From assembly GCA_964401995.1 (NCBI GenBank), contig CAYOAP010000001.1, positions 160,592 through 224,591 of the forward strand: a stretch of 64,000 bases of DNA, written 5' to 3'. The translations under genes and the position numbers were made by a program. Under the pieces are notes generated by a model that was not told where the DNA came from, searched no databases, and saw nothing but the letters and a program-made list of their open reading frames with translations. This document shows positions 3,069-57,191 of the stretch, in pieces (positions within the stretch are counted from its first letter, which is position 1; each line of letters begins with the position of its first letter). This stretch comes from an uncultured Conexibacteraceae bacterium (GTDB lineage Bacteria; Actinomycetota; Thermoleophilia; Solirubrobacterales; 70-9).

Positions 3069-4031
3069 GTGGCCGACACGACCAAATCCCAACCGCTCGT
3101 CGAGCGGCTTGTCGCTGGCGACAAGCGAGCGCTGGCGCGAGCGATAACCCTGATCGAGTCCGACGACCCGGCTGGCTGGGAGCTGGTCCGCGAGGTCTAC
3201 CCCAACACCGGCAAGGCGCGGATCGTCGGCTTCACCGGCCCTCCCGGGGTCGGCAAGAGCACGCTGATCGGCGCCCTGACCGGTGAGCTGCGCAAAGCCG
3301 ACCGCCAGGTCGCCGTGCTCTCGATCGATCCCTCCAGCCCCTTCACCCACGGCGCCCTGCTCGGCGATCGCATCCGCCTCTCCGAGCACTTTCTCGACTC
3401 CGGCGTCTTCATCCGCTCGATGGCCTCGCGCGGCGCCCTCGGCGGGCTCTCCGAGGCCGCCCTGCAGGTGGCGCTGGCGATGGACGCCGCCGGCAAAGAC
3501 GATGTCCTGATCGAGACGGTCGGGGTGGGCCAGGCCGAGATCGACATCGTCGACCACGCCGACACGATCGTGCTGGCGCTGATGCCCGGCTCCGGCGACT
3601 CGATCCAGGCGCTGAAGGCGGGGGTGATGGAGATCCCCGACGTGATCGTCGTCAACAAGGCCGACCACCCGATGACCGACACGATGGTGCGCGAGGTGCG
3701 CGGGGTGCTGGCCCTCTCCCACGATCCCGAAGGCTGGCGGGTGCCGATCCTGCGCACCGAGGCGGCTCGCGGCGAGGGCGTGGCGGAGCTGGCCGAGAAG
3801 ATCGACGAGCACCGCGCCCACATCGAAGCGGGGGGGACGCTGGCCGCGCGCCGCGCCCGCAACCTGCGCAACGAGGTCTTGGGGATCGCGACCTCGCGGA
3901 TGCGCCGCCGGCTTGAGGCCATCGTCGCCGACGATCCCGAGATCGCGGCGCTGCTGGATCGCGTCGTCAGCCGCGAGCTTGACCCGGCCAGCGCCGCGAG
4001 CGAGCTGCTGGAGCGCCAGGTCGATGGCTGA
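3069..4031 (+). CDS. meaB: MeaB/ArgK G3E-family GTPase (methylmalonyl-CoA mutase chaperone)
   Basis: 320 aa with GTG start. P-loop GPPGVGKST, ETVGVGQ and NKAD motifs; N-terminal LVERLVAGDKRALARAITLIE is typical of MeaB. Confidence 0.85.
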   Translation: MADTTKSQPLVERLVAGDKRALARAITLIESDDPAGWELVREVYPNTGKARIVGFTGPPGVGKSTLIGALTGELRKADRQVAVLSIDPSSPFTHGALLGDRIRLSEHFLDSGVFIRSMASRGALGGLSEAALQVALAMDAAGKDDVLIETVGVGQAEIDIVDHADTIVLALMPGSGDSIQALKAGVMEIPDVIVVNKADHPMTDTMVREVRGVLALSHDPEGWRVPILRTEAARGEGVAELAEKIDEHRAHIEAGGTLAARRARNLRNEVLGIATSRMRRRLEAIVADDPEIAALLDRVVSRELDPASAASELLERQVDG

Positions 4032-4479: not shown

Positions 4480-6237
4480 ATGGTCTTGCTGATCCTCTTC
4501 GGCTTCATCGCGGGCGCTGCCACAGCGCTCTCGCCCTGCGTGCTGCCGGTCCTGCCGATCGCGCTCTCGGCAGGGGCGACCGGTGGCCGGCGGCGGCCGC
4601 TCGGGATCGTCGTCGGCCTCGCGGTCTCCTTCACCTTCGCCACTGTCGCCCTCGTCTACGTGATCGCGGCCTTGGGCCTGCCGGGCGACCTGCTCCGCAA
4701 CCTGGCGATCGCGGTGCTGCTCGTCTTCGGGATTTGCCTGATGGTTCCGCCGCTGGCGGCACGGCTGGAGGCCTGGCTGAGCCGCTTCGCCAGCCGCGCC
4801 GGGGTCGCCGGCGGCAAAGGCGACGGCTTCTGGTCGGGGACGGCGGTGGGGGCCAGCCTCGGGCTCGTCTATGCCCCCTGCGCCGGGCCGATCCTCGCTG
4901 GCGTGATCACTGTCTCCGCCTCGCAGACATTCACCGCCGGCCGCCTCGGCGTCGCCCTCAGCTACGGGATCGGCTCCGCCTTCGTCCTCTATTTCCTGAT
5001 GCTCGGCGGCCGCCGCGTCGTCGCTCCGCTCGCCCGGCGCGGCATCGGCTTCCAGGTGGCGATGGGCGCGGTGATGGTGGTCGTCGCCTTGGCGATGCTG
5101 GGCAACTACGACGTTCGCTTCCAGAACTCGATCGCCAGCGATCTGCCCAGCTTCCTGGTCGATCCCACCCACAGCCTCGAGGACACCGCCGCCGCCCGCT
5201 CGGCCCTGGTCGACGTTCGCGGCGAAGCGGCCCATGGCGTCGGCGGCAGGGCTGCCGGCGCGCCGCAGCCGGCCGAAGGAGCGAAAGGCAGGCTGGCGTT
5301 GCCGGTGCTGGGGGTCGCCCCCGAATTCGTCGACAACCAGCAGTGGTTCAACACTCCCGGCGATCGGCCGTTGACGCTGCGCAGCCTGCGCGGGCGGGTG
5401 GTCCTGGTCGACTTCTGGACCTACACCTGCATCAACTGCCTGCGCACGCTGCCCTACCTGAAGGCGTGGGACGAGCGCTACCGCAAGGACGGGCTGACGA
5501 TCGTAGGCATCCACTCGCCCGAGTTCCCGTTCGAGCACGATGCCGGCAACGTCGCCGACGCGATCGAACGCAACGGCCTGCGCTATCCCGTCGCCCAGGA
5601 CAATGACCTCGCAACCTGGAACGCCTATGGCAACCAGTACTGGCCGGCCGAGTACTTCATCGACGCCCAGGGCCGGGTCCGCTACGTGCACTTCGGCGAG
5701 GGCTCGTATGGCGAGAAGGAGAAAGTCATCCGCCAGCTGCTGGCCGAAGCGGGCCACAAGGTTTCCGGGCCCGACTCGGGCGCCCATGGGATCGCGCCCT
5801 CGGCTGGGCTGACGACTCCCGAGACCTACCTCGGCGCCGCTCGCGCCGAACGTTTCATCAACCCGATGCTCTCGCCCGGGCTCCATGACTTCGGCAACCC
5901 CGCGAAGCCGCCGGCTGACGAATTCGCCTACCGCGGGAAGTGGAGGATCAGCCTCGAGTCGGCGACGGCGGCTGGCGGCGCCTCACTTGACCTCAACTTC
6001 GGGGCGCGGCGGGTCTATCTCGTGCTCGGCTCGCCCGGGCAGAGCCGCACGATGCGGGTATTGCTCGACGGCCGGCCGATCCCCGACAGCCTGGCCGGGG
6101 CCGACGTCCACAACGGCGTCGCCGTGATCTCCGGCCAGCGCCTCTACGACCTGGTCAACCTGCCCAAGGTCGGCCACCATGTCCTCCGGCTCGAACCCGA
6201 AACCGGGATCTCGGGTTACGCGTTCACGTTCGGCTAA
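4480..6237 (+). CDS. dipZ: DipZ-like fusion: CcdA/DsbD-type membrane thiol-disulfide transporter, thioredoxin-like domain and a C-terminal beta-rich domain
   Basis: Polytopic N-terminus with Cys motifs ALSPCVLPV and YAPCAGPIL. TlpA/ResA-like domain with FWTYTCINCLRTLP (CxxC). About 170-aa C-terminal extension, as in mycobacterial DipZ. Confidence 0.8.
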   Translation: MVLLILFGFIAGAATALSPCVLPVLPIALSAGATGGRRRPLGIVVGLAVSFTFATVALVYVIAALGLPGDLLRNLAIAVLLVFGICLMVPPLAARLEAWLSRFASRAGVAGGKGDGFWSGTAVGASLGLVYAPCAGPILAGVITVSASQTFTAGRLGVALSYGIGSAFVLYFLMLGGRRVVAPLARRGIGFQVAMGAVMVVVALAMLGNYDVRFQNSIASDLPSFLVDPTHSLEDTAAARSALVDVRGEAAHGVGGRAAGAPQPAEGAKGRLALPVLGVAPEFVDNQQWFNTPGDRPLTLRSLRGRVVLVDFWTYTCINCLRTLPYLKAWDERYRKDGLTIVGIHSPEFPFEHDAGNVADAIERNGLRYPVAQDNDLATWNAYGNQYWPAEYFIDAQGRVRYVHFGEGSYGEKEKVIRQLLAEAGHKVSGPDSGAHGIAPSAGLTTPETYLGAARAERFINPMLSPGLHDFGNPAKPPADEFAYRGKWRISLESATAAGGASLDLNFGARRVYLVLGSPGQSRTMRVLLDGRPIPDSLAGADVHNGVAVISGQRLYDLVNLPKVGHHVLRLEPETGISGYAFTFG

Positions 6238-6260
6238 GGAGCTCCCACAGGGTCGACAGG

Positions 6261-6737
6261 TCAGTCGACGCTGCCAGGGGGAGCGATCCAGACGCTCTCG
6301 AACTCGAGGCTCGTGTGGGTCGCGAGCAGGTCGTAGTCGCTGTCGTAATGCAGGACGCCAAGTCGATACTGGGAGGCGATCGAGGCGATCAGGAGGTCGG
6401 GAAAGCTGATCCGGTGATTCGCCGCTGGGTCTTCGGCCAACTCGCGCTGAGCGCGTTCTGCCAGAAGCCATGTGTCGGCATCGCCTCTGGTCTGAGCAAG
6501 GCCGTCGAGCTCGTCCGAGAAGGCCGAGAACTCGGCGGCTGTGCGCGCGGAATACAGAGCCTCGACGCGGAAGGGGGGTGATGCATGGAGCCGGTTCTCG
6601 CGCACGGCATCTTCGAAAGCCCGAAGAGACCCTCGGCTGAGTCGCCGTCCGCGGTCTGGGCGCGTCTGGGCGAGGGCGACGCGCACGTAGGCGGACCAAT
6701 CCAGCAGTGCGGCTGGCAGCAGCGGAGTCGAGGTCAC
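6261..6737 (-). CDS. vapC: VapC-like PIN-domain toxin
   Basis: LLDWSAYV (N-terminal Asp) and C-terminal ISFPDLLIASIASQYRLGVLHYDSDYDLL fit a PIN domain. GTG 6737 overlaps the upstream antitoxin stop (GTGA). Confidence 0.65.
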   Translation of the reverse strand: MTSTPLLPAALLDWSAYVRVALAQTRPDRGRRLSRGSLRAFEDAVRENRLHASPPFRVEALYSARTAAEFSAFSDELDGLAQTRGDADTWLLAERAQRELAEDPAANHRISFPDLLIASIASQYRLGVLHYDSDYDLLATHTSLEFESVWIAPPGSVD

Positions 6738-7027
6738 AGTTCTTCGAGCAGCTTTTCTACCGACGGACGCTTCCACCCTGGCCTGTCGAGGGCGATGTCC
6801 AGATCCAACCCGGCGCCGGTGCGCATTCTCTCGAGGAAGCGCTCACGCGAGGCTCGCCTGCGCGCTTCCTCCTCGTCTGTCTCTCGCGCTTCGGCGATCG
6901 TCGCCTCCGCGCCTTTGATCACCAGCCGCTGAAAGCTGATCGGGATCCCCTGTGAGCGCAGGGGCGCAAGAGCCGTCTCGACCTCGGCGGTCTCGGTGAT
7001 CATGTGGCGCTTGCGTTTGGTCGGCAT
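6734..7027 (-). CDS. Type II antitoxin partner of the PIN toxin
   Basis: 97 aa: MPTKRKRHMITETAEVETALAPL..EARETDEEEARRRASRERFLE. Small, charged, and overlapping the toxin start by 4 nt. The start could also be ATG 7003. Confidence 0.55.
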   Translation of the reverse strand: MPTKRKRHMITETAEVETALAPLRSQGIPISFQRLVIKGAEATIAEARETDEEEARRRASRERFLERMRTGAGLDLDIALDRPGWKRPSVEKLLEEL

Positions 7028-7039
7028 GAATCGAGTGTA

Positions 7040-7070
7040 GCACCAGGTGCAGCACCCGATCTGTCGGTGC
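7040..7070. promoter_or_regulatory. Candidate TA autoregulatory operator (four GCACC/GGTGC half-sites)
   Basis: GCACC-A-GGTGC-A-GCACC-N9-GGTGC lies 13-43 nt upstream of the antitoxin ATG (7027, minus strand). Confidence 0.35.
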
Positions 7071-7141
7071 AATTGGGGTGGCTGAGATTCGCTTCATGGC
7101 CCCTTAAGGCCTGGGCGACGAGTTTTCTCCCCCCTTGGGGC

Positions 7142-8287
7142 TCAGCAGCCGAGCTGGCGGGCGATCACCATCTGCTGCACCTCGTCGGTGCCCTCGCCGA
7201 TGGTGAGGATCTTGGCGTCGCGGTAGAAGCGGCAGACCGGGTACTCCTCGATGAAGCCGTAGCCACCGTGGATCTGCACCGCCTCCTCGGTCGCTTTGAC
7301 CGCGAGGCGGCCGGTGATCAGCTTCGCCTGGGCGGCCGTCAGGGTGAATGACTGGCCGGCGTCCTTTTCCAGCGCCGCCCGCCAGGTGAGCAGGCGCGCT
7401 GCCTCGATCTGGGCGGAGAGGTCGGCGATCTTGGCCTGGATCGACTGGAATTTCGAGATCGGCTGGCCGAAGGCCTTGCGCTCTTTGGCGTAGGAGATCG
7501 CCTCGTCGAGGGCGCCCTGCGCCAGGCCCACTCCCATCGCCGCGACCCCGATCCGGCCGCCGTCGAGGATGTGGAGGAAGTTCTTGAAGCCTTCGCCGCG
7601 GCGGCCGAGCAGGCTGGACTCGGGCACCCGGCAGTCCTCGAAGGAGAGCGGGCGCGTGTCGGAGGCGTTCCAGCCCATCTTGCGGTAGGGCGTGCCAGCC
7701 TCGTAGCCTGGAGTCCCGTTGGCGACGATCAGGTTGGAGATCTCTTTGCGGCCGTTGGCCTCGCCGGTGACGGCGGTGATCGAGACGCAGCCGGAGATGT
7801 CGGTGCCGGAGTTGGTGATGAACTGCTTGGCCCCGTTGACGACCCATTCGCCGCCGTCCAGCTTCGCCGTGGTGCGGACGTTGCCGGCGTCGGAGCCGGC
7901 CTCGGGCTCGGTCAGGCCGAAGGAGGCGAGGCGCTTGCCGGCGCAGAGCTGCGGCAGCCACTCCGACTTCTGCTCGTCGCTGCCCCAGAGGTAGATCGGC
8001 ATCGTCCCCAGCGAGGTGTGGGCGGCCATCGTGATGCAGACGGATGAGTCGATCCGGGCCAGCTCTTCGACCGCCAGCACGTAGGACATCGTGTCGGCCC
8101 CACCGCCCCCATACTCCTGCGGGAACGGGATCCCCATCAGGCCAAGATCGCCCAGCTTCTCGACGATCTCGTAGGGAAACGACTTGGTCCGATCCAGCTC
8201 CTCGGCAACGGGCGCGACCTCCTGCCGGGCAAAGTCCCGGACGGTGTCGCGCAGCAGCCGCTGCTCATCGCTCAGCTCGAAGTTCAC
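7142..8287 (-). CDS. Acyl-CoA dehydrogenase
   Basis: 381 aa. MNFELSDEQRLLRDTVRDFA N-terminus and C-terminal YRDAKILTIGEGTDEVQQMVIARQL are typical of the ACAD family. Confidence 0.9.
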   Translation of the reverse strand: MNFELSDEQRLLRDTVRDFARQEVAPVAEELDRTKSFPYEIVEKLGDLGLMGIPFPQEYGGGGADTMSYVLAVEELARIDSSVCITMAAHTSLGTMPIYLWGSDEQKSEWLPQLCAGKRLASFGLTEPEAGSDAGNVRTTAKLDGGEWVVNGAKQFITNSGTDISGCVSITAVTGEANGRKEISNLIVANGTPGYEAGTPYRKMGWNASDTRPLSFEDCRVPESSLLGRRGEGFKNFLHILDGGRIGVAAMGVGLAQGALDEAISYAKERKAFGQPISKFQSIQAKIADLSAQIEAARLLTWRAALEKDAGQSFTLTAAQAKLITGRLAVKATEEAVQIHGGYGFIEEYPVCRFYRDAKILTIGEGTDEVQQMVIARQLGC

Positions 8288-8308
8288 GCGCGGCAGCCTA
8301 TGCGAGCG

Positions 8309-9745
8309 CTAGAGCTGAAGGCTCTTGACCTGCAAGAGCTCCTCGATCGCGAAGCGGCCGTTCTCCCGCCCGTGGCCTGACTGCTTGTAGCCGCCGAAGG
8401 GGGCGAGGGGGTTGAAGGCGCCGCCGTTGATCTCGATCTGGCCGGTGCGGATGCGACGGGCGACGCCGATCGCGCGCTCGCTGTCGGCGGACCAGACGCC
8501 GCCGGCGAGGCCGTAGACGCTGTCGTTGGCGATCCGGACCGCGTCCTCCTCGTTGTCGTAGGGCTGGATCGCCAGCACCGGGCCGAAGATCTCCTCCTGG
8601 GCGATCGTCATCTCCGTCGTCACCTCGGAGAAGACGGTGGGGCGGACGAAGTAGCCGCGGTCGAGGCCGTCGGGCGCCGTCGCTCCGCCGGTCACCAGCT
8701 TCGCCCCTTCGGCCTCGCCTTTCTCGATGTAGCCGCGGACCCGCTGGCGCTGGACGTCGGAGACGAGTGGCCCGAGCCGGGTCGAGTCCTCGAAGGGGTC
8801 GCCGGGCGTGAACGCCTCGGCAGTCGTGGCGGCGATCTGCTCGGCTTCGGCCAGCTTCTCGCGCGGGACCAGCATCCGGGTCAGGGCGCTGCAGGTCTGG
8901 CCCGAATTGAGGAAGCACTTGGCGACGCCGTCGGGGACCGCCTTGGCGAGGTCGGCGTCGTCGAGGATCAGATTGGGCGACTTGCCGCCCAGCTCCATCG
9001 CCACCGGCTTGACCGAGGCCGAGGCGAGCTCGCTGACCCGGCGCCCGGCTCGGGTCGAGCCGGTGAAGGAGATCATGTCGACCCCGGGGTGCCCGGCGAT
9101 CGCCTCGCCGACGACCGGCCCGGTGCCGGTGACGAGGTTGAAGACGCCGGCGGGCAGGCCGACCGCCTCGATCACCTCGGCCAGGATGAAGGCGTTGAGG
9201 GGGACGATCTCGCTCGGCTTGAGGACCACCGTGCAGCCGGCGGCAAGCGCCGGCGCCACCTTGGCGGCGATCTGGTTCAGCGGGTAGTTCCAGGGCGTGA
9301 TCGCGCCGAGCACGCCGACCGGCTCGCGCAGCACCCGCGAGTTGCCGATCTCCTGCTCCCAGGCGATTTCCTCCATCAGCGCCGGCATTGCCGCGAACTG
9401 GCCGATCGGCAGCCCGGCCTGGATGATCCGGCTCAGGGTTAGCGGCATGCCCAGCTCCTGGGAGATCGTGGCGGCGATCTCGTCGCCGCGCTCGCCGAGC
9501 CCGGCCGAGATCGCGCTCAGGTAGCCGGCGCGCTCGTCGCGGGGGGTCTGCGACCAGGAGTCAAAGGCGTCGCGGGCGGCCCGCACGGCGCGATCGGCGT
9601 CCTCGGCTGTGCCGGCCGGGATCGTCCCCATCTTCTCCTCGGTCGTCGAGTTGACGACGTCGAGCGTCTCGGCGCCGGTCGAGTCGACCCACTCGCCGCC
9701 GATGAAGATCTTGTCGCGGACCTGAACCTCTGCCGTTGTCGCCAT
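8309..9745 (-). CDS. NAD(P)-dependent aldehyde dehydrogenase
   Basis: 478 aa. Catalytic Glu motif MELGGKSP and catalytic Cys motif [15 protein letters not shown]-type RBS upstream. Confidence 0.9.
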
Positions 9746-28819: not shown

Positions 28820-29833
28820 GTGAGCCCAGAGGTGGGCTCGGCACAGGCAGAGGCGTCGTCGGCTTCCTCAAACGGGGCCGACTCGCTGCGCATGCCCGAC
28901 GGCGCCCTGGTCGCGAAACGCGACGCGCCGGTCGGTGGCCAGGCGGTTCTGGAGGGCGTGATGATGCGCGGCATCTCGACCTGGGCCGTCGCCGTCCGCA
29001 ACCCTGAGGGCAAGATCGAGATCAGCTCGGAGACGCTGGTCCCCTGGGCCAAGCGCAACCGCCTCTGGCGGGCGCCGGTGATTCGCGGCGTCGTCGCCCT
29101 CGGCGAGTCGATGAAGATCGGCTTCAAGGCGCTGGCGATCTCCGCCAACGCTCAGATCCCCGAGGATGAGGAGGGCGAGCCCGAAGAGATCGGCGGCTTC
29201 ATCTGGGGGGTGACGATCTTCCTCTCGGTGTTGCTGGCGATCGGGCTCTTCTTCGTCGTCCCGGTCGGGCTGACCAGCCTGATCAAGGACAAGCTCGGCT
29301 CGCCGTTCCTGTTTTGGCTGGTCGAGGGCCTGCTGCGGACGGGGATCTTCATCGGCTACATCGCCGCGATCAGCCGCCTCAAGGACCTGCGGCGCGTCTT
29401 CGAGTACCACGGCGCCGAGCACAAGACGATCTCCTGTTACGAGGCCGAAGACGAGCTGACCCCGGCCCGGGCCAAGCTCTACTCGCGCCTGCACCCCCGT
29501 TGCGGCACCAGCTTCCTGCTGATCGTGATGGTGCTGGCGATCTTCGTCTTCGCCCCGATCGGCCTCCCCGCCTGGTACTGGCTGGTCGCTTCGCGCATCC
29601 TCGGCATCCCGCTGATCGCCGGCCTCTCCTACGAGGTGATCAAGTGGGCCGGCAAAAACCGCCGCAAACGCTGGGTGCGGGCGGTGATGTGGCCGGGGCT
29701 GATGCTGCAGAACCTGACCACTCGCGAACCGGATGAAGAGCAGCTGGCGGTCGCGATCGCTTCGCTTGAGGCGGTCTTGGCTCGTGAGACACCCGCGGTT
29801 GCGGGCGAGCCGCACATCGAGATAGTCGCGTAG
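28820..29833 (+). CDS. DUF1385-family membrane protein
   Basis: GQAVLEGVMMRG, YHGAEHKTISCYE and HPRCGTSFLL signatures. Conserved position between rpmE and prfA. Confidence 0.8.
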   Translation: MSPEVGSAQAEASSASSNGADSLRMPDGALVAKRDAPVGGQAVLEGVMMRGISTWAVAVRNPEGKIEISSETLVPWAKRNRLWRAPVIRGVVALGESMKIGFKALAISANAQIPEDEEGEPEEIGGFIWGVTIFLSVLLAIGLFFVVPVGLTSLIKDKLGSPFLFWLVEGLLRTGIFIGYIAAISRLKDLRRVFEYHGAEHKTISCYEAEDELTPARAKLYSRLHPRCGTSFLLIVMVLAIFVFAPIGLPAWYWLVASRILGIPLIAGLSYEVIKWAGKNRRKRWVRAVMWPGLMLQNLTTREPDEEQLAVAIASLEAVLARETPAVAGEPHIEIVA

Positions 29834-29843
29834 GCGCTCGGTC

Positions 29844-30056
29844 GCGGGTCCTGTCGTGGGGGTTGGGTGGCCTCGCTTGCGCTGCGATCTGCTCCGGGCG
29901 GCGGGATGGCTTCGCTCGAAGGGACGAGACCTTGCCCTTCGCAGACTCCGCGACTGCGCGACACCACCCAACCCCCACGCCACCCGCGAGCGAAGTGTCC
30001 ACAGCCCGAACTGCATCAACTTCCCTACCTGCCAGATCGAGAAGTTGATGCAGTTC
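29844..30056 (+). repeat. Structured intergenic repeat, copy A (core plus 3' hairpin)
   Basis: Aligns by eye along its whole length with 56303-56521. It has a perfect 15-bp long-range helix (29856-29870 / 29964-29978). It also has a perfect 16-bp hairpin (30008-30023 / 30041-30056) with a 17-nt loop. Confidence 0.85.
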
Positions 30057-30184
30057 GCTGGCGGAGCTTCGGAGACGCTTGGAAGCTTCGAGGCGCTCGG
30101 GGCTTCCGGCGCTGGCGGCTCTTAGCGGCTTCGGGGTCTTCGAGACGCTTCGAAGCTTCTGCGTCCAGTCGGGCTCGCTGCTCG
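30057..30184. repeat. Spacer between inverted repeat copies, with two GAGACGCTT-S-GAAGCTTC units
   Basis: GAGACGCTTGGAAGCTTCGAG (about 30072-30092) and GAGACGCTTCGAAGCTTCTGCG (about 30142-30163). GCTGGCGG occurs at about 30057 and 30111. GAAGCTTCGA can pair with TCGAAGCTTC. Confidence 0.6.
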
Positions 30185-30328
30185 CGTGGGTGGCGTCGGG
30201 ATGGGGCGGACTCGCCGGCCCGAAGGCTGTGGAGGGCAAGATTGCAACCCTGCAGGGCGCGGTGTCCCTCCGCCCGGAGCAGCGCGAAAGGGCCGCCGAG
30301 GGTGCCCCATCCCGGCGACAGGCCCCGC
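30185..30328 (-). repeat. Structured intergenic repeat, copy C (diverged core, inverted orientation)
   Basis: The reverse complement aligns block by block with copies A and B: GCGGGGCCTGTCGCCGGGATGGGG.., CTGCTCCGGGCGGAGGG, CTTGCCCTCCACAG, CCCCATCCCGACGCCACCC. It has its own perfect 10-bp closing helix (30198-30207 / 30304-30313). Confidence 0.75.
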
Positions 30329-30370
30329 GCGCCCAGCGCCCCGCGCTTATGCCAAGGCTATGGTTGGCCC

Positions 30371-31441
30371 GTGATCGAGAAACTCGTTGAGCAGGTGGAA
30401 GCGCGGTTCGCTGACCTTGAGGGGCAGATGTCTGACCCTGCAGTGATCGGCGACAGAGAACGCTATGCCGAAGTTGGGCGTGAGTACCGGGAACTGCAGG
30501 CTGCACACGAGTTGGCCGGCGAGTGGCGGACGCTTAAAGACGATCTTGAAGGAGCGCGGGAGCTTCTTGAGGAAGGCGAGGACTCCGAGCTGCGCAAGGT
30601 CGTTGACGATGCGCCTGCTCGGTTGGAGGAGCTGACTGAGGAGATTCGGTTGGCGATGGTCGAGCGCGATCCGAACGACTCCAAAAACGTGCTGGTCGAG
30701 ATCCGGGCTGGGACCGGGGGGGACGAGGCGGCGCTGTTTGCCGGCGACCTCTACAAAATGCTGACTCGGTATGCCGAGGAGCGTGGCTTCTCGACCGAGG
30801 TGCTGTCGCAGTCGGCGGCCGAGGTCGGCGGCTTCAAGGAGGTCACCTTCGCGGTCAAGGGCGAGGGCGCCTACTCCGTCTTCAAGTACGAGGGTGGGAC
30901 GCACCGGGTGCAGCGGGTGCCGGAGACCGAGTCCCAGGGCCGCATCCACACCTCGACCGCGACGATCGCGGTGCTGCCGGAGGCCGAGGACGTCGAGATC
31001 GAAATCAACCAGGGCGATCTGCAGATCGACGTCTACCGCTCCTCGGGCCCGGGTGGGCAGTCGGTCAACACGACCGACTCAGCGGTTCGGATCACCCACA
31101 AACCGAGCGGGATCGTGGTCTCGATGCAGGACGAGAAGTCCCAGCTTCAGAACAAGGACAAGGCGATGCGGGTGCTGCGGGCGCGGCTCTACGAGCGCGA
31201 GCTGGCCGAACAGCAGGCGAAGATCGCCTCCGAGCGCAAGGCCCAGGTCGGCACCGGCGAGCGCAGCGAGAAGGTCCGCACCTACAACTTCCCCCAGGGC
31301 CGCGTCACCGACCACCGGATCAAGCACACCTCGCACAACCTCGACGGGGTGCTGGCTGGCGCCCTGAACGAGTTCACCGATGCGCTCGCCGCCGAGGAGA
31401 AGCGGCAGCGCCTGGAGACCGCGGCAGCCGCTCCGGTCTGA
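30371..31441 (+). CDS. prfA: Peptide chain release factor 1
   Basis: GTG start inside track ORF 29867-31441 (VIEKLVEQVEARFADLEGQM). PET codon-recognition tripeptide and GPGGQSVNTT (GGQ) motif. Confidence 0.95.
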   Translation: MIEKLVEQVEARFADLEGQMSDPAVIGDRERYAEVGREYRELQAAHELAGEWRTLKDDLEGARELLEEGEDSELRKVVDDAPARLEELTEEIRLAMVERDPNDSKNVLVEIRAGTGGDEAALFAGDLYKMLTRYAEERGFSTEVLSQSAAEVGGFKEVTFAVKGEGAYSVFKYEGGTHRVQRVPETESQGRIHTSTATIAVLPEAEDVEIEINQGDLQIDVYRSSGPGGQSVNTTDSAVRITHKPSGIVVSMQDEKSQLQNKDKAMRVLRARLYERELAEQQAKIASERKAQVGTGERSEKVRTYNFPQGRVTDHRIKHTSHNLDGVLAGALNEFTDALAAEEKRQRLETAAAAPV

Positions 31442-54754: not shown

Positions 54755-55159
54755 TTGAGCCACGATCCAGTCCGCCGCTTCGTCGACGCCTTCAATGGGG
54801 GCGATCTGGATGCCTTTGCCGCAGTGCTCGACCCGGAGGTCGAGCTGCATTCTGGGCGGGGCCTGCGCAAGGGGGTGGCGGCGGCGCGATTGTGGGCGAC
54901 GCGGCCGCCCGGCGGCGTGCAGCAGACGATTGAGCTGGACGAGCTCTACGAGGAAGGCCTGGAGGGCGGTGGCGGGACCGCAGTCGCCCTGATCACCCGC
55001 CGCTGGCACTGGGAAGAGGACGGCTCTTTCGCCCATGAGGAGGAGATGGCCTGGCTCTTCGAGTTGCACGACGGCAGGATCCGCAGCTGGCGCCCTTTCG
55101 ACGACCGCGCCGAGGCGCTGCGCGCGGGCGGGTTCGAGCACGGCGCCGCGGCTGGGTAA
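54755..55159 (+). CDS. NTF2/SnoaL-like small protein
   Basis: 134 aa. VRRFVDAFNGGDLDAFAAVLDPEVEL is typical of the SnoaL-like fold. TTG start. It is inserted between secA and prfB. Confidence 0.55.
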   Translation: MSHDPVRRFVDAFNGGDLDAFAAVLDPEVELHSGRGLRKGVAAARLWATRPPGGVQQTIELDELYEEGLEGGGGTAVALITRRWHWEEDGSFAHEEEMAWLFELHDGRIRSWRPFDDRAEALRAGGFEHGAAAG

Positions 55160-55168
55160 GCTGCGGGC

Positions 55169-56288
55169 ATGGCTGAGACCGCGTCAACCGAATCGGTGCC
55201 GGCGCGGCTCGCCGAGATCCGCGATCAGTTGAAGCTGCTCGCGGACTACCTTTGACCCGGCTGCGCTTGAGTCGGAGATAACCGAGCTTGAGGCCGAGAT
55301 GCAGCGGCCCGGCTTCTGGGACGAGCAGGAGGCGGCCGCCCGCACCTCGGCTGCCCACGCCCGCGCCCAGCGCAAGCTGAAGACCTTCCGTGAGCTGGAG
55401 TCGGAAGCGGGCGACCTCGCCGAGCTGGCCGAGATCGCGGCCGAGGACGAGGAGATGGCGGCAGAACTCGACACCCAGCTCTCCTCGGTAGAGCGCCGCC
55501 TGGCCGAGCTGGAGGAGGCGCGGCTGTTCAGCGGCAGCTACGACGCCGGCGATGCCGTCGTCACCGTCCATGCTGGGGCGGGGGGGACCGACTCCCAGGA
55601 CTGGGCCGAGATCCTGCTGCGGATGTACCTGCGCTGGGCCGAGCGCCGCGGCTTCGAGGTTGAGATGAAGGAGGCCTCGCCGGGGGAGGAGGCGGGGCTG
55701 AAGTCAGGGACCTTTATCGCTCGCGGCGAGAACGCCTACGGCCTCTTCGCCGCCGAGCGCGGCGTCCACCGCCTGGTCCGGATCTCACCCTTCGACTCTT
55801 CGTCCCGACGCCACACCAGCTTCGCTCAGGTTGACGTCGCGCCCTTGGTCGATTCCGGGGTCGACGTCGAGATCGACGAGACCGACCTGCGGATCGACAC
55901 CTACCGCGCCTCCGGGGCCGGCGGCCAGCACGTCAACAAGACCGACTCGGCGGTGCGGATCACCCACATCCCGACCAACACCGTCGTCCAGTGCCAGAAC
56001 GAGCGCTCCCAGACCCAGAACAAAGCGGTGGCGATGCAGATGCTGCGCTCGAAGCTGGTCGAGCTGGAGGAGCGCAAACGGGCCGAAGAGCTGGCCAAGG
56101 TGCGCGGCGAGGTCAAGGACGTGGCCTGGGGCTCGCAGATCCGCAGCTACGTCCTGCACCCCTACACGATGGTCAAGGACCATCGCACCGAGCACGAGGT
56201 GGGCGACGTGCAGCGGGTGCTCGACGGCGACATCGACGAGTTCATCCGTGACTATCTGAACAAGACCGCTGCGTCTTCAGCGAGCTGA
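55169..56288 (+). CDS. prfB: Peptide chain release factor 2, requiring a programmed +1 frameshift (55169-55252 joined to 55254-56288)
   Basis: Frame 0 encodes MAETASTESVPARLAEIRDQLKLLADYL and ends at CTT TGA C. The +1 frame continues DPAALESEITELEAEMQRPGFWDE. SPF tripeptide and SGAGGQHVNKT (GGQ) motif. Confidence 0.95.
55250..55256 (+). promoter_or_regulatory. RF2 autoregulatory +1 frameshift site CUU UGA C
   Basis: Exact CTTTGAC heptamer at codon 28/29 of prfB. The downstream frame is RF2-like. Confidence 0.9.
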
Positions 56289-56302
56289 TGGGGGTTCTGG
56301 CC

Positions 56303-56521
56303 GCGGGTCCTGTCGCCGGGGTGGGGTGGCCCTCGCTTGCACTGCGATCTGTTCCGGGCGAAGGGGTGGTTTCGCGTGTAGGGGTTGGGCCTTGCCCTCC
56401 ACAGACTCCGTGCTGCGCGACACCACCCCACCCCGGCGCCACCCGCGGACGAGCGTCCCAACTCCTAACCCCGAACTGCATCAAATTCCCTACCTGCCAG
56501 AGGGAGAATTTGATGCAGTTC
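56303..56521 (+). repeat. Structured intergenic repeat, copy B (core plus 3' hairpin)
   Basis: It starts 15 nt after the prfB stop. It has a perfect 14-bp long-range helix (56316-56329 / 56423-56436). It also has a perfect 16-bp hairpin (56473-56488 / 56506-56521). It is collinear with copy A. Confidence 0.85.
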
Positions 56522-56528
56522 GCTCGAC

Positions 56529-57191
56529 ATGGGCGAGGGTCGGCCTGAGATGGCTGAGTCGCTGATTTTCCTCGAGCGCCCGGCGGCGGATGCGCCAGAG
56601 GGGCTGCTGGTGCTGCATCACGGCCGCGGCACCGACGAGCGCGATCTGCTCGGGCTGGCCGACGTCCTCGACCCGCAGCGACGGCTCCACGTCCTCACGC
56701 CGCGGGCGCCACTGACGCTGCCGGGCTCGCCCGGCTACCACTGGTATCTGGTGCCGCGGGTCGGCTACCCCGACCACGACACGTTCCACGCGGCACGGGC
56801 CGCCCTGGCCGAGCTCCACGACGGCCTCTGGGAGCGGACCGGGGTCGATCCTTCGCGCACCGTCCTCGGCGGCTTCTCGATGGGGTCCGTGATGAGCTAC
56901 GCGATGGCGCTGAGTGGCGACCGGCCACCGGTGGCGGGCATCCTCGCCTTCAGCGGCTTTCTGCCGATCGTCGAGGACTGGCAGCCCAAGTTCGACGACA
57001 GGCTCGGGACCAAGGCCTTCATCGCCCACGGCCGCCAGGATCCGATCATGGAGATCGGGTTCGCCCACCGCGCCCGCGCGGCGCTTGAGGCCGGTGGCCT
57101 CGCCGTCGACTACCACGAGTCCGATCTGGGCCACCAGATCGACCCGGCCAACGTTCCCGCCGCGGTCGAGTGGCTGCATGAGACGATCTGA
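56529..57191 (+). CDS. Phospholipase/carboxylesterase-family serine hydrolase
   Basis: LLVLHHGRGTDERD, LGGFSMGSVMS (GxSxG) and AHGRQDPIM. The start may be ATG 56550, because no RBS precedes 56529. Confidence 0.8.
   Translation: MGEGRPEMAESLIFLERPAADAPEGLLVLHHGRGTDERDLLGLADVLDPQRRLHVLTPRAPLTLPGSPGYHWYLVPRVGYPDHDTFHAARAALAELHDGLWERTGVDPSRTVLGGFSMGSVMSYAMALSGDRPPVAGILAFSGFLPIVEDWQPKFDDRLGTKAFIAHGRQDPIMEIGFAHRARAALEAGGLAVDYHESDLGHQIDPANVPAAVEWLHETI

Follow-up and report, generated by a model that had tools for sequence, protein, structure and literature searches.

Repetitive extragenic palindromic (REP) sequences with GTAG or CGTC tags are situated downstream of genes, between convergent or unidirectional open reading frames (ORFs), and their termini, including the GTAG end, supply TAG stop codons (PMC3733652). 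REPs also occur as inverted dimers and within replication and repair genes, and are associated with HUH tyrosine transposases (PMC3733652). Rickettsia palindromic elements (RPEs) are palindromic repeats of ~100–150 bp that reside in intergenic regions and in-frame in unrelated functional protein genes, to which they add a peptide segment (PMC10969869). Here these systems are compared with a large hairpin-forming repeat in a 64-kb stretch of DNA (68% G+C), hereafter the window, from an uncultured Conexibacteraceae bacterium (assembly GCA_964401995.1, contig CAYOAP010000001.1, positions 160,592–224,591). The window harbors three copies, designated A, B, and C, which we interpret, with a probability of roughly 0.7, as undescribed, non-autonomous, dispersed repeats that constitute a large member of the REP/MITE/RPE palindromic class, where MITE denotes miniature inverted-repeat transposable element.

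Copies A and B are 81.6% identical over 228 nt in blastn comparisons (E 2e-56), and the inverted copy C is 69% identical to A over 163 nt and 71% identical to B over 157 nt. When every position of the window was scored against a covariance model with filters off, exactly three copies were recovered: A at positions 29834–29995 on the plus strand (150 bits), B at 56291–56462 on the plus strand (144 bits), and the diverged C at 30167–30344 on the minus strand (126 bits). The next-best match was the antisense of A at 20 bits. The three copies thus exist where a preliminary description of this DNA had placed them, and all of the helix coordinates that it gave proved exact when checked against the sequence. 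The same description viewed A and B as copies of a single segment of ~215 nt that begins 11 nt after the stop codon of a DUF1385 gene. The copies are real, but the segment comprises two different repeats side by side: a small hairpin, which is considered below, and the large repeat, which begins directly after the TAG stop and includes an outer stem, GCTCG...CGAGC, that had been left out.

The large repeat is a unit of ~175–195 nt that folds into one long irregular hairpin. It consists of two outer stems, an asymmetric internal loop, a G-rich/C-rich helix in which the sequence may change provided that pairing is kept, and invariant apical blocks. The internal loop is strictly conserved with GGGUCCUGUCG opposite CGACGCCACCC. 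Strictly conserved blocks also separate the helices, namely GGGTCCTGTCG opposite CGACGCCACCC and the apical CTGCTCCGGGCG and CTTGCCCTCCGCAG, and CUGCUCCGGGCG and CUUGCCCUCCGCAG form an invariant apical block pair. A looser further stem outside the modeled core, in which GGGAC..GCGCTCGG pairs with GAGNAGCGTCC, extends the unit to its full length. In copy A, the outer stem is GCTCG..GCGGG / CCCGC..CGAGC, the conserved block is GGGTCCTGTCG, the invariant apical blocks are CTGCTCCGGGCG and CTTGCCCT, and the G-rich arm of the variable helix at 29856–29870 pairs with the C-rich arm at 29964–29978. The predicted folds of A (z = -6.5) and B (z = -5.8) were more stable than those of dinucleotide shuffles, none of 200 of which was as stable, whereas copy C alone was not exceptional (z = -1.2). 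The reverse strand of A folds equally well (z = -8.0).

Covariation that had been perceived by eye in three copies was confirmed with an alignment of 62 copies, including A, from many genomes that was prepared with MAFFT and folded with RNAalifold. The consensus comprised 38 pairs in five helices, and 18 of these pairs displayed double compensatory changes. Overall 95.5% of cells were paired, compared to 48–57% when the 3' partners were slid by one to three columns; changes on both sides of a pair were found in 224 cells versus 13–43 in the slid controls; and none of 500 shuffles reached any of five measures. The exchanges are evident at alignment columns 15–175 (CG 28, GC 27, UA 2), 38–155 (UA 33, GC 19), 59–134 (CG 32, GC 25, AU 3), 62–131 (GC 27, AU 19), and 66–128 (GC 44, UA 16). 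The inner exchange of TCTGC/GCAGA in A for TCTGT/ACAGA in B, which also was noted at the outset, corresponds to columns 69–125 (GC 56, UA 4, CG 2). As the apical helix never varies, covariation neither supports nor refutes this part of the fold. The strong covariation of the helices across ~60 copies supports the view that the fold of a nucleic acid is conserved here and not a protein.

Functional RNAs usually tolerate G·U pairs far more than A·C mismatches. At the variable pairs of the large repeat, G·U was observed in 24 cells and A·C in 31. As G·U is no commoner than A·C, the transcribed strand is not singled out by the data. On the strand of A and B, three other positions are invariant, being G·U in nearly every copy (177 cells). 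The pairing data therefore are as compatible with a DNA hairpin that includes fixed mismatches as with an RNA, and only the three invariant positions may favor the A/B strand. The equal rarity of G·U and A·C at variable pairs is what would be expected from a process that acts on DNA arms. The pairing might not be selected at all: the arms would be kept complementary by template switching or by conversion of one arm to match the other during replication, and the family would be decaying duplicated DNA. A remnant of the outer stems in one relative and an internal deletion in another, both of which are described below, look like slippage across the hairpin. However, homogenization of the arms would erase the asymmetric loop, the positions with fixed mismatches, and the invariant unpaired apical blocks, and the architecture is unchanged in genomes whose proteins differ by 30–40%. 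This explanation is considered quite improbable.

The distribution of the family was assessed with a three-block pattern common to A, B, and C that was scanned over 185,579 species, with one genome for each. The scan returned 111 loci, among which a profile search identified ~60 true full-length copies. All of these are in Solirubrobacterales, Conexibacteraceae, or unclassified Actinomycetes metagenome-assembled genomes (MAGs), and the pattern matches in other phyla were attributable to chance. The covariance model produced 68 matches over the loci from those MAGs, nine of which are diverged or shortened, such that about 70 copies are recognized in addition to those of the window. Each genome tends to have several; even with the strict pattern, no fewer than 11 were found in MFD02923.bin.2.73. 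The absence of the repeat from known RNA families, as surmised initially, was borne out by Rfam 15, which gave no matches in the whole window at gathering thresholds. Sensitive mode, applied to positions 29700–30500, gave only chance hits to mir-643 (17.9 bits, threshold 65) and mir-3477 (16.4 bits, threshold 108) with E-values of 1–5. Distant blastn searches of a plasmid collection found no match to the large repeat, and nothing relevant was found in the literature on palindromic repeats in Solirubrobacterales or MITEs in Conexibacter. The family is undescribed and, as far as scanned, is restricted to one lineage of the Solirubrobacterales, which are soil Actinomycetota. Separately, the ABC ATPase gene of one long-read MAG (L046, positions 5530–7210; L numbers denote the loci compared) aligns to its orthologs in five pieces with shifting frames, which suggests homopolymer indel errors in the assembly. 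Single-base differences in the G-runs of the repeat in MFD-series MAGs accordingly call for caution.

The sites at which A, B, and C reside differ markedly in content between close relatives. The spacer between DUF1385 and prfA, which accommodates A and C, was compared in six relatives with DUF1385 proteins that are 87–93% identical to that of the window. One spacer resembles that of the window in having an A-like copy together with a C-like one, but is without the small hairpin (L117). Another is empty, with 17 nt between the same TAG and the start of prfA (L122). A third retains a remnant that consists only of the joined outer stems GGGCGGGT/ACCCGCGCGAGTTGCGC (L119). The remaining spacers possess an extra gene (L120), an unrelated hairpin element of 175 nt with a closing helix of ~25 bp (L118; z = -8.4), or a nest of partial copies (L121). 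The nest, at positions 3600–3860 of its locus, displays three or four 5' ends (GGGCGGGTCCTGTCG, GGGCGGTCTTGTCG, GCGCGGGTCCTGTCG, and GCGCGGCTCCTCTCG) with one 3' end, and looks like the outcome of repeated insertion into or beside older copies followed by decay. The spacer between prfB and an esterase gene, in which copy B is located, was compared in four relatives. There is no spacer in one case, where the stop and start codons overlap (L151), whereas the others include the small hairpin alone (L150), an ortholog of copy B that is missing ~72 internal nt and is accompanied by the small hairpin (L149), or a variant of 123 nt with the same termini but a different interior (L152). The reverse situation pertains at window positions 8288–8308 on the minus strand, an empty site of 21 nt that separates an aldehyde dehydrogenase gene, which ends with TAG, from the start of a gene for acyl-CoA dehydrogenase: in L080, the orthologous spacer has a full copy directly after the same TAG. 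Orthology in this instance was established by tblastx of both L080 flanks onto window positions 8000–8299 and 8318–8812, followed by direct comparison.

Relationships among the copies also are revealing of turnover. Copies at three different loci of one genome (L038, L063, and L080) are nearly identical. Resemblance among copies does not follow locus: the two in L104 are 79% alike, yet they are only 65–68% like their positional counterparts elsewhere. At the same linker of an ABC ATPase, the copy at L116 positions 7133–7313 is in the opposite orientation to that at L090 positions 5426–5606 and those in L065 and L075, and the outer inverted repeats are identical. An equivalent flip was seen in a loop of a membrane protein, where L012 positions 192–366 are inverted relative to L109, L007, and L104 between identical outer inverted repeats. 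Such flips reflect either in-place inversion, through recombination of one arm with the other, or a hot spot at which insertions took place independently. An apparent empty site in the membrane-protein gene of L108 was rejected as such, as it is a relic deleted in-frame. The empty sites and the deleted, nested, and near-identical copies together show insertion, deletion, and conversion of the repeat, which thus is mobile or at least actively recombining. No target-site duplication was found at the ends of the copies in L038, L063, and L080, nor in comparisons of filled with empty sites (the window with L080 and with L122).

These observations bear on the original proposal that a structured RNA is under selection at these loci. 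That proposal fares poorly: all three sites in the window are empty, degraded, or otherwise filled in close relatives, many copies lie antisense inside coding sequences, and, unlike in typical RNAs, G·U does not outnumber A·C at the variable pairs. Single-stranded DNA, which had been offered as an alternative, and the MITE/IS class (IS, insertion sequence), which had gone unrecognized, fit better than a structured RNA at the loci. Thus, a conserved fold is supported, but a locus-specific functional RNA is not.

The genomic contexts of 70 copies were determined with a codon-usage gene caller that reproduced the known genes of the window. Twenty-eight copies follow a same-strand gene, with their starts at -2 to 21 nt after its stop codon. 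When sorted by their neighbors on both sides, 16 have a gene of the same strand upstream and one that converges on them downstream, 12 are between genes on their own strand, 16 are antisense between two genes of the opposite strand with the 3' end often 2–7 nt from a stop codon, only three are between divergent genes, and 18 are inside genes. Overall there is no net bias in orientation relative to genes (~31 sense versus ~34 antisense). Inside coding sequences, by contrast, 16 copies are antisense (18 if two split gene calls are counted) and two are sense. In-repeat stop codons were rejected as a cause of this antisense bias, as both strands are open in two or three frames in most copies. Copies A and C form a convergent pair with facing 3' ends just upstream of prfA, and seven such pairs, typically with one copy behind each of two convergent genes, were noted in L117, L095, L096, L062, L030, L019, and L042. 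A riboswitch or 5' leader was rejected, as copies located ahead of a same-strand gene are a minority and copy C points away from prfA. The copies persist where harm is small: after stop codons, between convergent genes, in operon gaps, and in in-frame interdomain linkers.

Certain of these contexts might be expected if the repeat were a cis-acting structured RNA of 3' untranslated or intercistronic regions that is selected for that role, with its spread being secondary. It might terminate transcription without the aid of a U-tract, obstruct 3' exonucleases, or modulate translation termination. Consistent with this possibility, two-fifths of the copies closely follow a same-strand stop codon, each gene in the seven convergent gene pairs has a sense copy of its own, and sense copies are almost absent from coding sequences even though sense frames are as open as antisense frames. 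The fold is very stable (approximately -120 kcal/mol when the small hairpin is included), covariation is strong, and it is on the sense strand that the three G·U pairs are fixed. Moreover, E. coli REPs that are no more than ~15 nt from a stop codon have been reported to stall terminating ribosomes. Nevertheless, the same spacers are empty or deleted in close relatives, including the prfB–esterase junction of L151 where stop and start overlap, approximately half of the copies are antisense to local genes, and the variable pairs have G·U about as often as A·C. A motif scan around A/C and B found no canonical promoter or terminator on the relevant strand, and the strand asymmetry of TAG triplets, outlined below, predicts the exclusion of sense copies from genes equally well. 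On balance a cis-acting RNA is judged unlikely. Multi-copy genes for trans-acting small RNAs or a new self-cleaving ribozyme would match the size of ~150 nt, the conserved internal loops, the covarying helices, and the absence from Rfam. However, there is no conserved promoter or terminator, copies abut or sit within genes on either strand, they are dispensable between close relatives, and truncated, deleted, and nested copies are common. We therefore regard this as very improbable.

The copies inside genes are positioned between domains of single proteins, as defined with Pfam, and the reading frame remains open across the repeat. In an ABC ATPase the in-frame copy separates the two ABC_tran domains, in dnaX it follows domain III, and in recG it lies between the wedge and helicase domains. 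Others are situated between the N- and C-terminal domains of a UvrD-like helicase and at the junction of PyrK and PyrD. The inserts predicted for DnaX, RecG, and the ABC ATPase amount to ~50 residues. A further copy is located in an N-terminal loop of a large membrane protein in seven genomes, with L108 retaining the in-frame deleted relic mentioned above. In L070, a stop-free frame at positions 6406–7998 extends from PyrK, with its Fe-S domain, via an antisense copy into PyrD, a dihydroorotate dehydrogenase. As judged from the sequence, pyrK and pyrD, which normally are separate genes, appear to be fused through the repeat. The in-gene copies would encode similar Gly/Pro/Arg-rich peptides in at least six host proteins, which could indicate that the repeat is a protein-coding module with the antisense frame ...GG.G.GG..P.EGCGGQG...SLRPEQRAGQ..P.P.... 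However, the majority of copies are intergenic, and the frame changes from one conserved block to the next owing to single-base indels, such that CGGQG is specified in some copies and AEGK in others. Conservation, moreover, tracks base pairing and not codon position. A protein module thus is effectively refuted.

A TAG triplet is overrepresented at the 5' junction of the large repeat. Among 64 copies, 28 (44%) had a TAG no more than 30 nt 5' of the GGGKCC motif, compared to 9.9% of background windows. In the same 64 copies, there was no excess of TGA 5' of GGGKCC and no excess at the 3' end. The base that precedes the TAG, scored by eye in 26 junctions, was G in 11, C in seven, A in six, and T in two. 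The TAG often is the stop codon of the upstream gene, but it also occurs at junctions that are not stops. In two clean comparisons of filled and empty sites, the native TAG stop was retained and the repeat follows it immediately. The flanking TAG may be an insertion target or part of a recognized end. In a genome of 68% G+C, most TAG triplets on the sense strand are stop codons. Within coding sequences, TAG is found 263 times in sense versus 2230 times in antisense orientation, a difference of ~8.5-fold. A repeat that needs a 5' TAG therefore would be expected in the sense orientation behind genes and in the antisense orientation inside them, which is the pattern that was observed. We infer this origin of the in-gene antisense bias, since most in-gene copies no longer show the TAG.

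Stop codons in 344 confidently coding ORFs of the window and the repeat-bearing loci were TAG in 39% of cases, TGA in 53%, and TAA in 8%. The proportion of TAG stops looks high for genomes of ~68–72% G+C and may be linked to TAG-tagged repeats that supply or prefer such stops. A signal for recoding of UAG was tried as an explanation and rejected: as TAG already accounts for 39% of stops, the 13 TAGs among 21 adjacent stops represent only a weak excess, TAG also is present at junctions that are not stops, and no frame is kept downstream.

The resemblance to REPs and REPINs is extensive. Like these, the large repeat is a dispersed, high-copy, strand-asymmetric hairpin that is extragenic for the most part, with three copies in 64 kb and at least 11 in one MAG. 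It favors spacers between convergent or unidirectional genes, frequently forms inverted doublets, and occasionally enters replication and repair genes. A short end tag with a terminal TAG, which often doubles as the stop codon of the adjacent ORF, is a putative further likeness, and, as with REPs, no target-site duplication was seen (PMC3733652). There also are differences. A REP is a simple stem-loop with a palindrome of 20–40 bp, whereas the large repeat is 175–195 nt, irregular, has at least 38 pairs in five helices, and bears invariant apical blocks; the 51-nt hairpin discussed below is nearer to REP size. The tag is NTAG in the large repeat and fewer than half of the copies have it, the members of doublets are separated by 120–300 nt, and no gene for a REP-associated tyrosine transposase (RAYT) was found near the copies in the 8-kb pieces of sequence searched. 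The host belongs to the Actinomycetota, a phylum that a text search of the REP survey did not find mentioned (PMC3733652).

The likeness to RPEs is one of behavior only, as both are found in-frame in genes, which for the large repeat are dnaX, recG, and those for the UvrD-like helicase, ABC ATPase, membrane protein, and PyrK-PyrD. The sequences appear to be unrelated, and at 75% G+C the composition of the large repeat is incompatible with that of the AT-rich RPEs. Its hosts are free-living, high-G+C soil actinobacteria, whereas RPEs inhabit a reduced intracellular alphaproteobacterium; furthermore, the in-gene copies are strongly of one orientation, and most copies are intergenic and abut stop codons. 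Some bacterial MITEs, namely Correia/NEMIS, ERIC/YPAL, RUP, and BOX, function as RNA hairpins. MITEs are defined by terminal inverted repeats of 15–30 bp that match a parent IS and by target-site duplications. The large repeat has terminal inverted repeats, with 5' GGAC..GCGCTCGGCCGCGGGT being the inverted complement of 3' ACCCGCGG..GAGCGTCC, and its outermost pairs covary (CG 28, GC 27). However, no target-site duplications were seen, no parent IS was found in the 8-kb stretches around the copies, and the whole repeat and not the ends alone is one covarying hairpin. With the 'peel and paste' elements of the IS200/IS605 family it may share the features of folded single-stranded DNA ends that are recognized, insertion 3' of a short specific sequence, lack of target duplication, and strand specificity. 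In contrast, IS200/IS605 elements have two separate subterminal hairpins and an orientation bias related to replication, whereas the large repeat is one hairpin that has no net bias relative to gene direction, and no TnpA was found near its copies.

In the interpretation that is preferred here, in which A, B, and C are mobile hairpin repeats, the fold would be kept because the copying machinery recognizes a folded single strand. The closest analogy may be provided by HUH tyrosine transposases, which recognize REP hairpins and IS200/IS605 ends. In the window, the DUF1385 and prfB messages probably extend into A and B, respectively, which would furnish them with very stable 3' structures. It is plausible that these structures stabilize the messages or interfere with translation termination, which would be a by-product and not the reason for their existence. 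A number of observations weigh against this interpretation. No HUH/Y1 motif and no tblastn match to RAYT or IS608 TnpA was detected in the relevant loci, although this is a weak negative result as approximate query sequences were used and the search covered 1.1 Mb in 8-kb pieces, of which ~0.5 Mb flanks Solirubrobacterales copies. The large repeat is 4–8 times longer than classical REPs, no target-site duplication is visible, and its ends are fuzzy. Fewer than half of the copies have the TAG, which is at the junction of only one of ~7 independent in-gene loci. The three G·U positions do not vary on one strand, nor do the apical blocks, which have no need to pair; a sequence-specific RNA role would likewise explain both observations. 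Lastly, orthologous in-gene copies keep the fold even though the host proteins are only 60–70% identical, which calls for ongoing selection at the site or else for conversion by other copies. A joint explanation can be envisaged in which some structure-specific enzyme of the Actinomycetota, either a distant HUH/RAYT relative or new, copies the folded strand of 175 nt just 3' of TAG, and the sense RNA additionally is active at stop codons by blocking exonucleases or tuning termination, including that of prfA and prfB. This is possible but doubtful. If it is true, the repeat would be a host-maintained 'giant REP' system that also builds protein linkers in replication and repair genes.

The hairpin at the 3' end of the segment described originally is not part of the large element. 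It is absent from all other copies of the large repeat and is an independent 51-nt palindromic repeat, situated on the plus strand at 30007–30057, 3' of copy A, and at 56472–56522, 27 nt ahead of the start codon of the esterase gene (ATG at 56550). The covariation claimed for this hairpin consists of one double change, CAACTTC/GAAGTTG in the first versus CAAATTC/GAATTTG in the second. The latter is the stem of the family consensus, CGAACTGCATCAAATTCCCTACCTGCCAGnnnnGGAATTTGATGCAGTTCG, and the former recurs in L150 and thus marks a subfamily of the small repeat. The hairpins on the A and B sides are 92.7% identical over 55 nt, which is more than the cores of the large repeat. Twenty-nine further sites were found on 26 stretches (JGI contigs from soil metagenomes; L123–L148) with differing flanks, and the large repeat is not near any of these 29 sites. 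The stem is unusually AT-rich for a genome of 68% G+C, the first 12 bases of the loop are conserved and four are variable, the 5' flank is C-rich and the 3' flank is G-rich with the two sometimes pairing, and the repeat often is located directly after stop codons. There was no match for it in Rfam. The small hairpin is, therefore, a second, independent REP-like repeat. The unrelated element in L118 (positions 3515–3694) is a multi-branch fold of 175 nt with a perfect closing helix, GGGGCAACCGGGGGCCGGTTCCC / GGGAACCGGCCCCCGGTTGCCCC (-122.7 kcal/mol), and no second copy was present in the sequences that were compared. This element suggests that there are several unrelated families of hairpin repeats and that the DUF1385–prfA spacer is an insertion hot spot.

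Other sequences accompany the repeats. In the genome that includes L080 (positions 1560–1900) and L063 (positions ~6700–6840), similarity extends for at least 120 nt 3' of the repeat and incorporates an AT-rich hairpin, GTCGACTTTTCCTC..GAGGAAAATCGAC. In L080, moreover, ~100 nt (CACCGATYAGCGAACGTCACGATCTGATTCTCCGTGAGCGGCG...) are repeated directly in tandem. The large repeat seems to travel with variable 3' companions. In the window, the spacer between the A-side small hairpin and copy C (positions 30058–30166) was found, on reading the sequence, to comprise an imperfect internal duplication of ~55 nt, with two occurrences of GCTGGCGG...GAGACGCTTSGAAGCTTC, and to contain many GCTTCGAAGC palindromes. 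Motifs like GCTTCGAAGC also are present in the matching spacers of L117, L095, and L096.

The genes that surround the copies are as follows. The DUF1385 gene (positions 28820–29833, plus strand), supported by the ORF list, called genes, and Pfam, is part of an rpmE-DUF1385-prfA-prmC cluster, and its TAG stop (29831–29833) abuts copy A. The exact DUF1385 protein is present on ENA and Logan metagenome contigs, and close homologs are labeled Solirubrobacterales. The prfA gene for release factor 1 is at 30371–31441 on the plus strand; the 5' end of copy C is ~30–40 nt upstream of its start and the copy is directed away from it. The prfB gene for release factor 2 (55299–56288, plus strand), whose ortholog has the Pfam domains PCRF and RF-1, ends with TGA at 56286–56288, a few nt before copy B. 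It was called as an ORF of 329 amino acids from 55299 with a separate upstream ORF at 54755–55159, whereas prfB of L151 was called as 372 amino acids.

Solirubrobacterales are abundant in soil but barely cultured, and their genomes are known almost only from MAGs. Repeats of the type outlined here break MAG assemblies and mislead gene callers: a start codon was placed within the small hairpin in L150, and prfA was called 57 nt downstream of its likely start. The results also sound a caution for RNA screens, as excellent covariation alone cannot separate a functional RNA from a mobile repeat that depends on a hairpin. Dozens of covarying copies together with empty, deleted, and flipped sites furnish a natural data set with which one could ask how such repeats are copied, why the fold is retained, and whether usable linkers are added to proteins. 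Behavior that is characteristic of REPs and RPEs thus extends to a high-G+C actinobacterial lineage, with a hairpin that is far larger and more elaborate.

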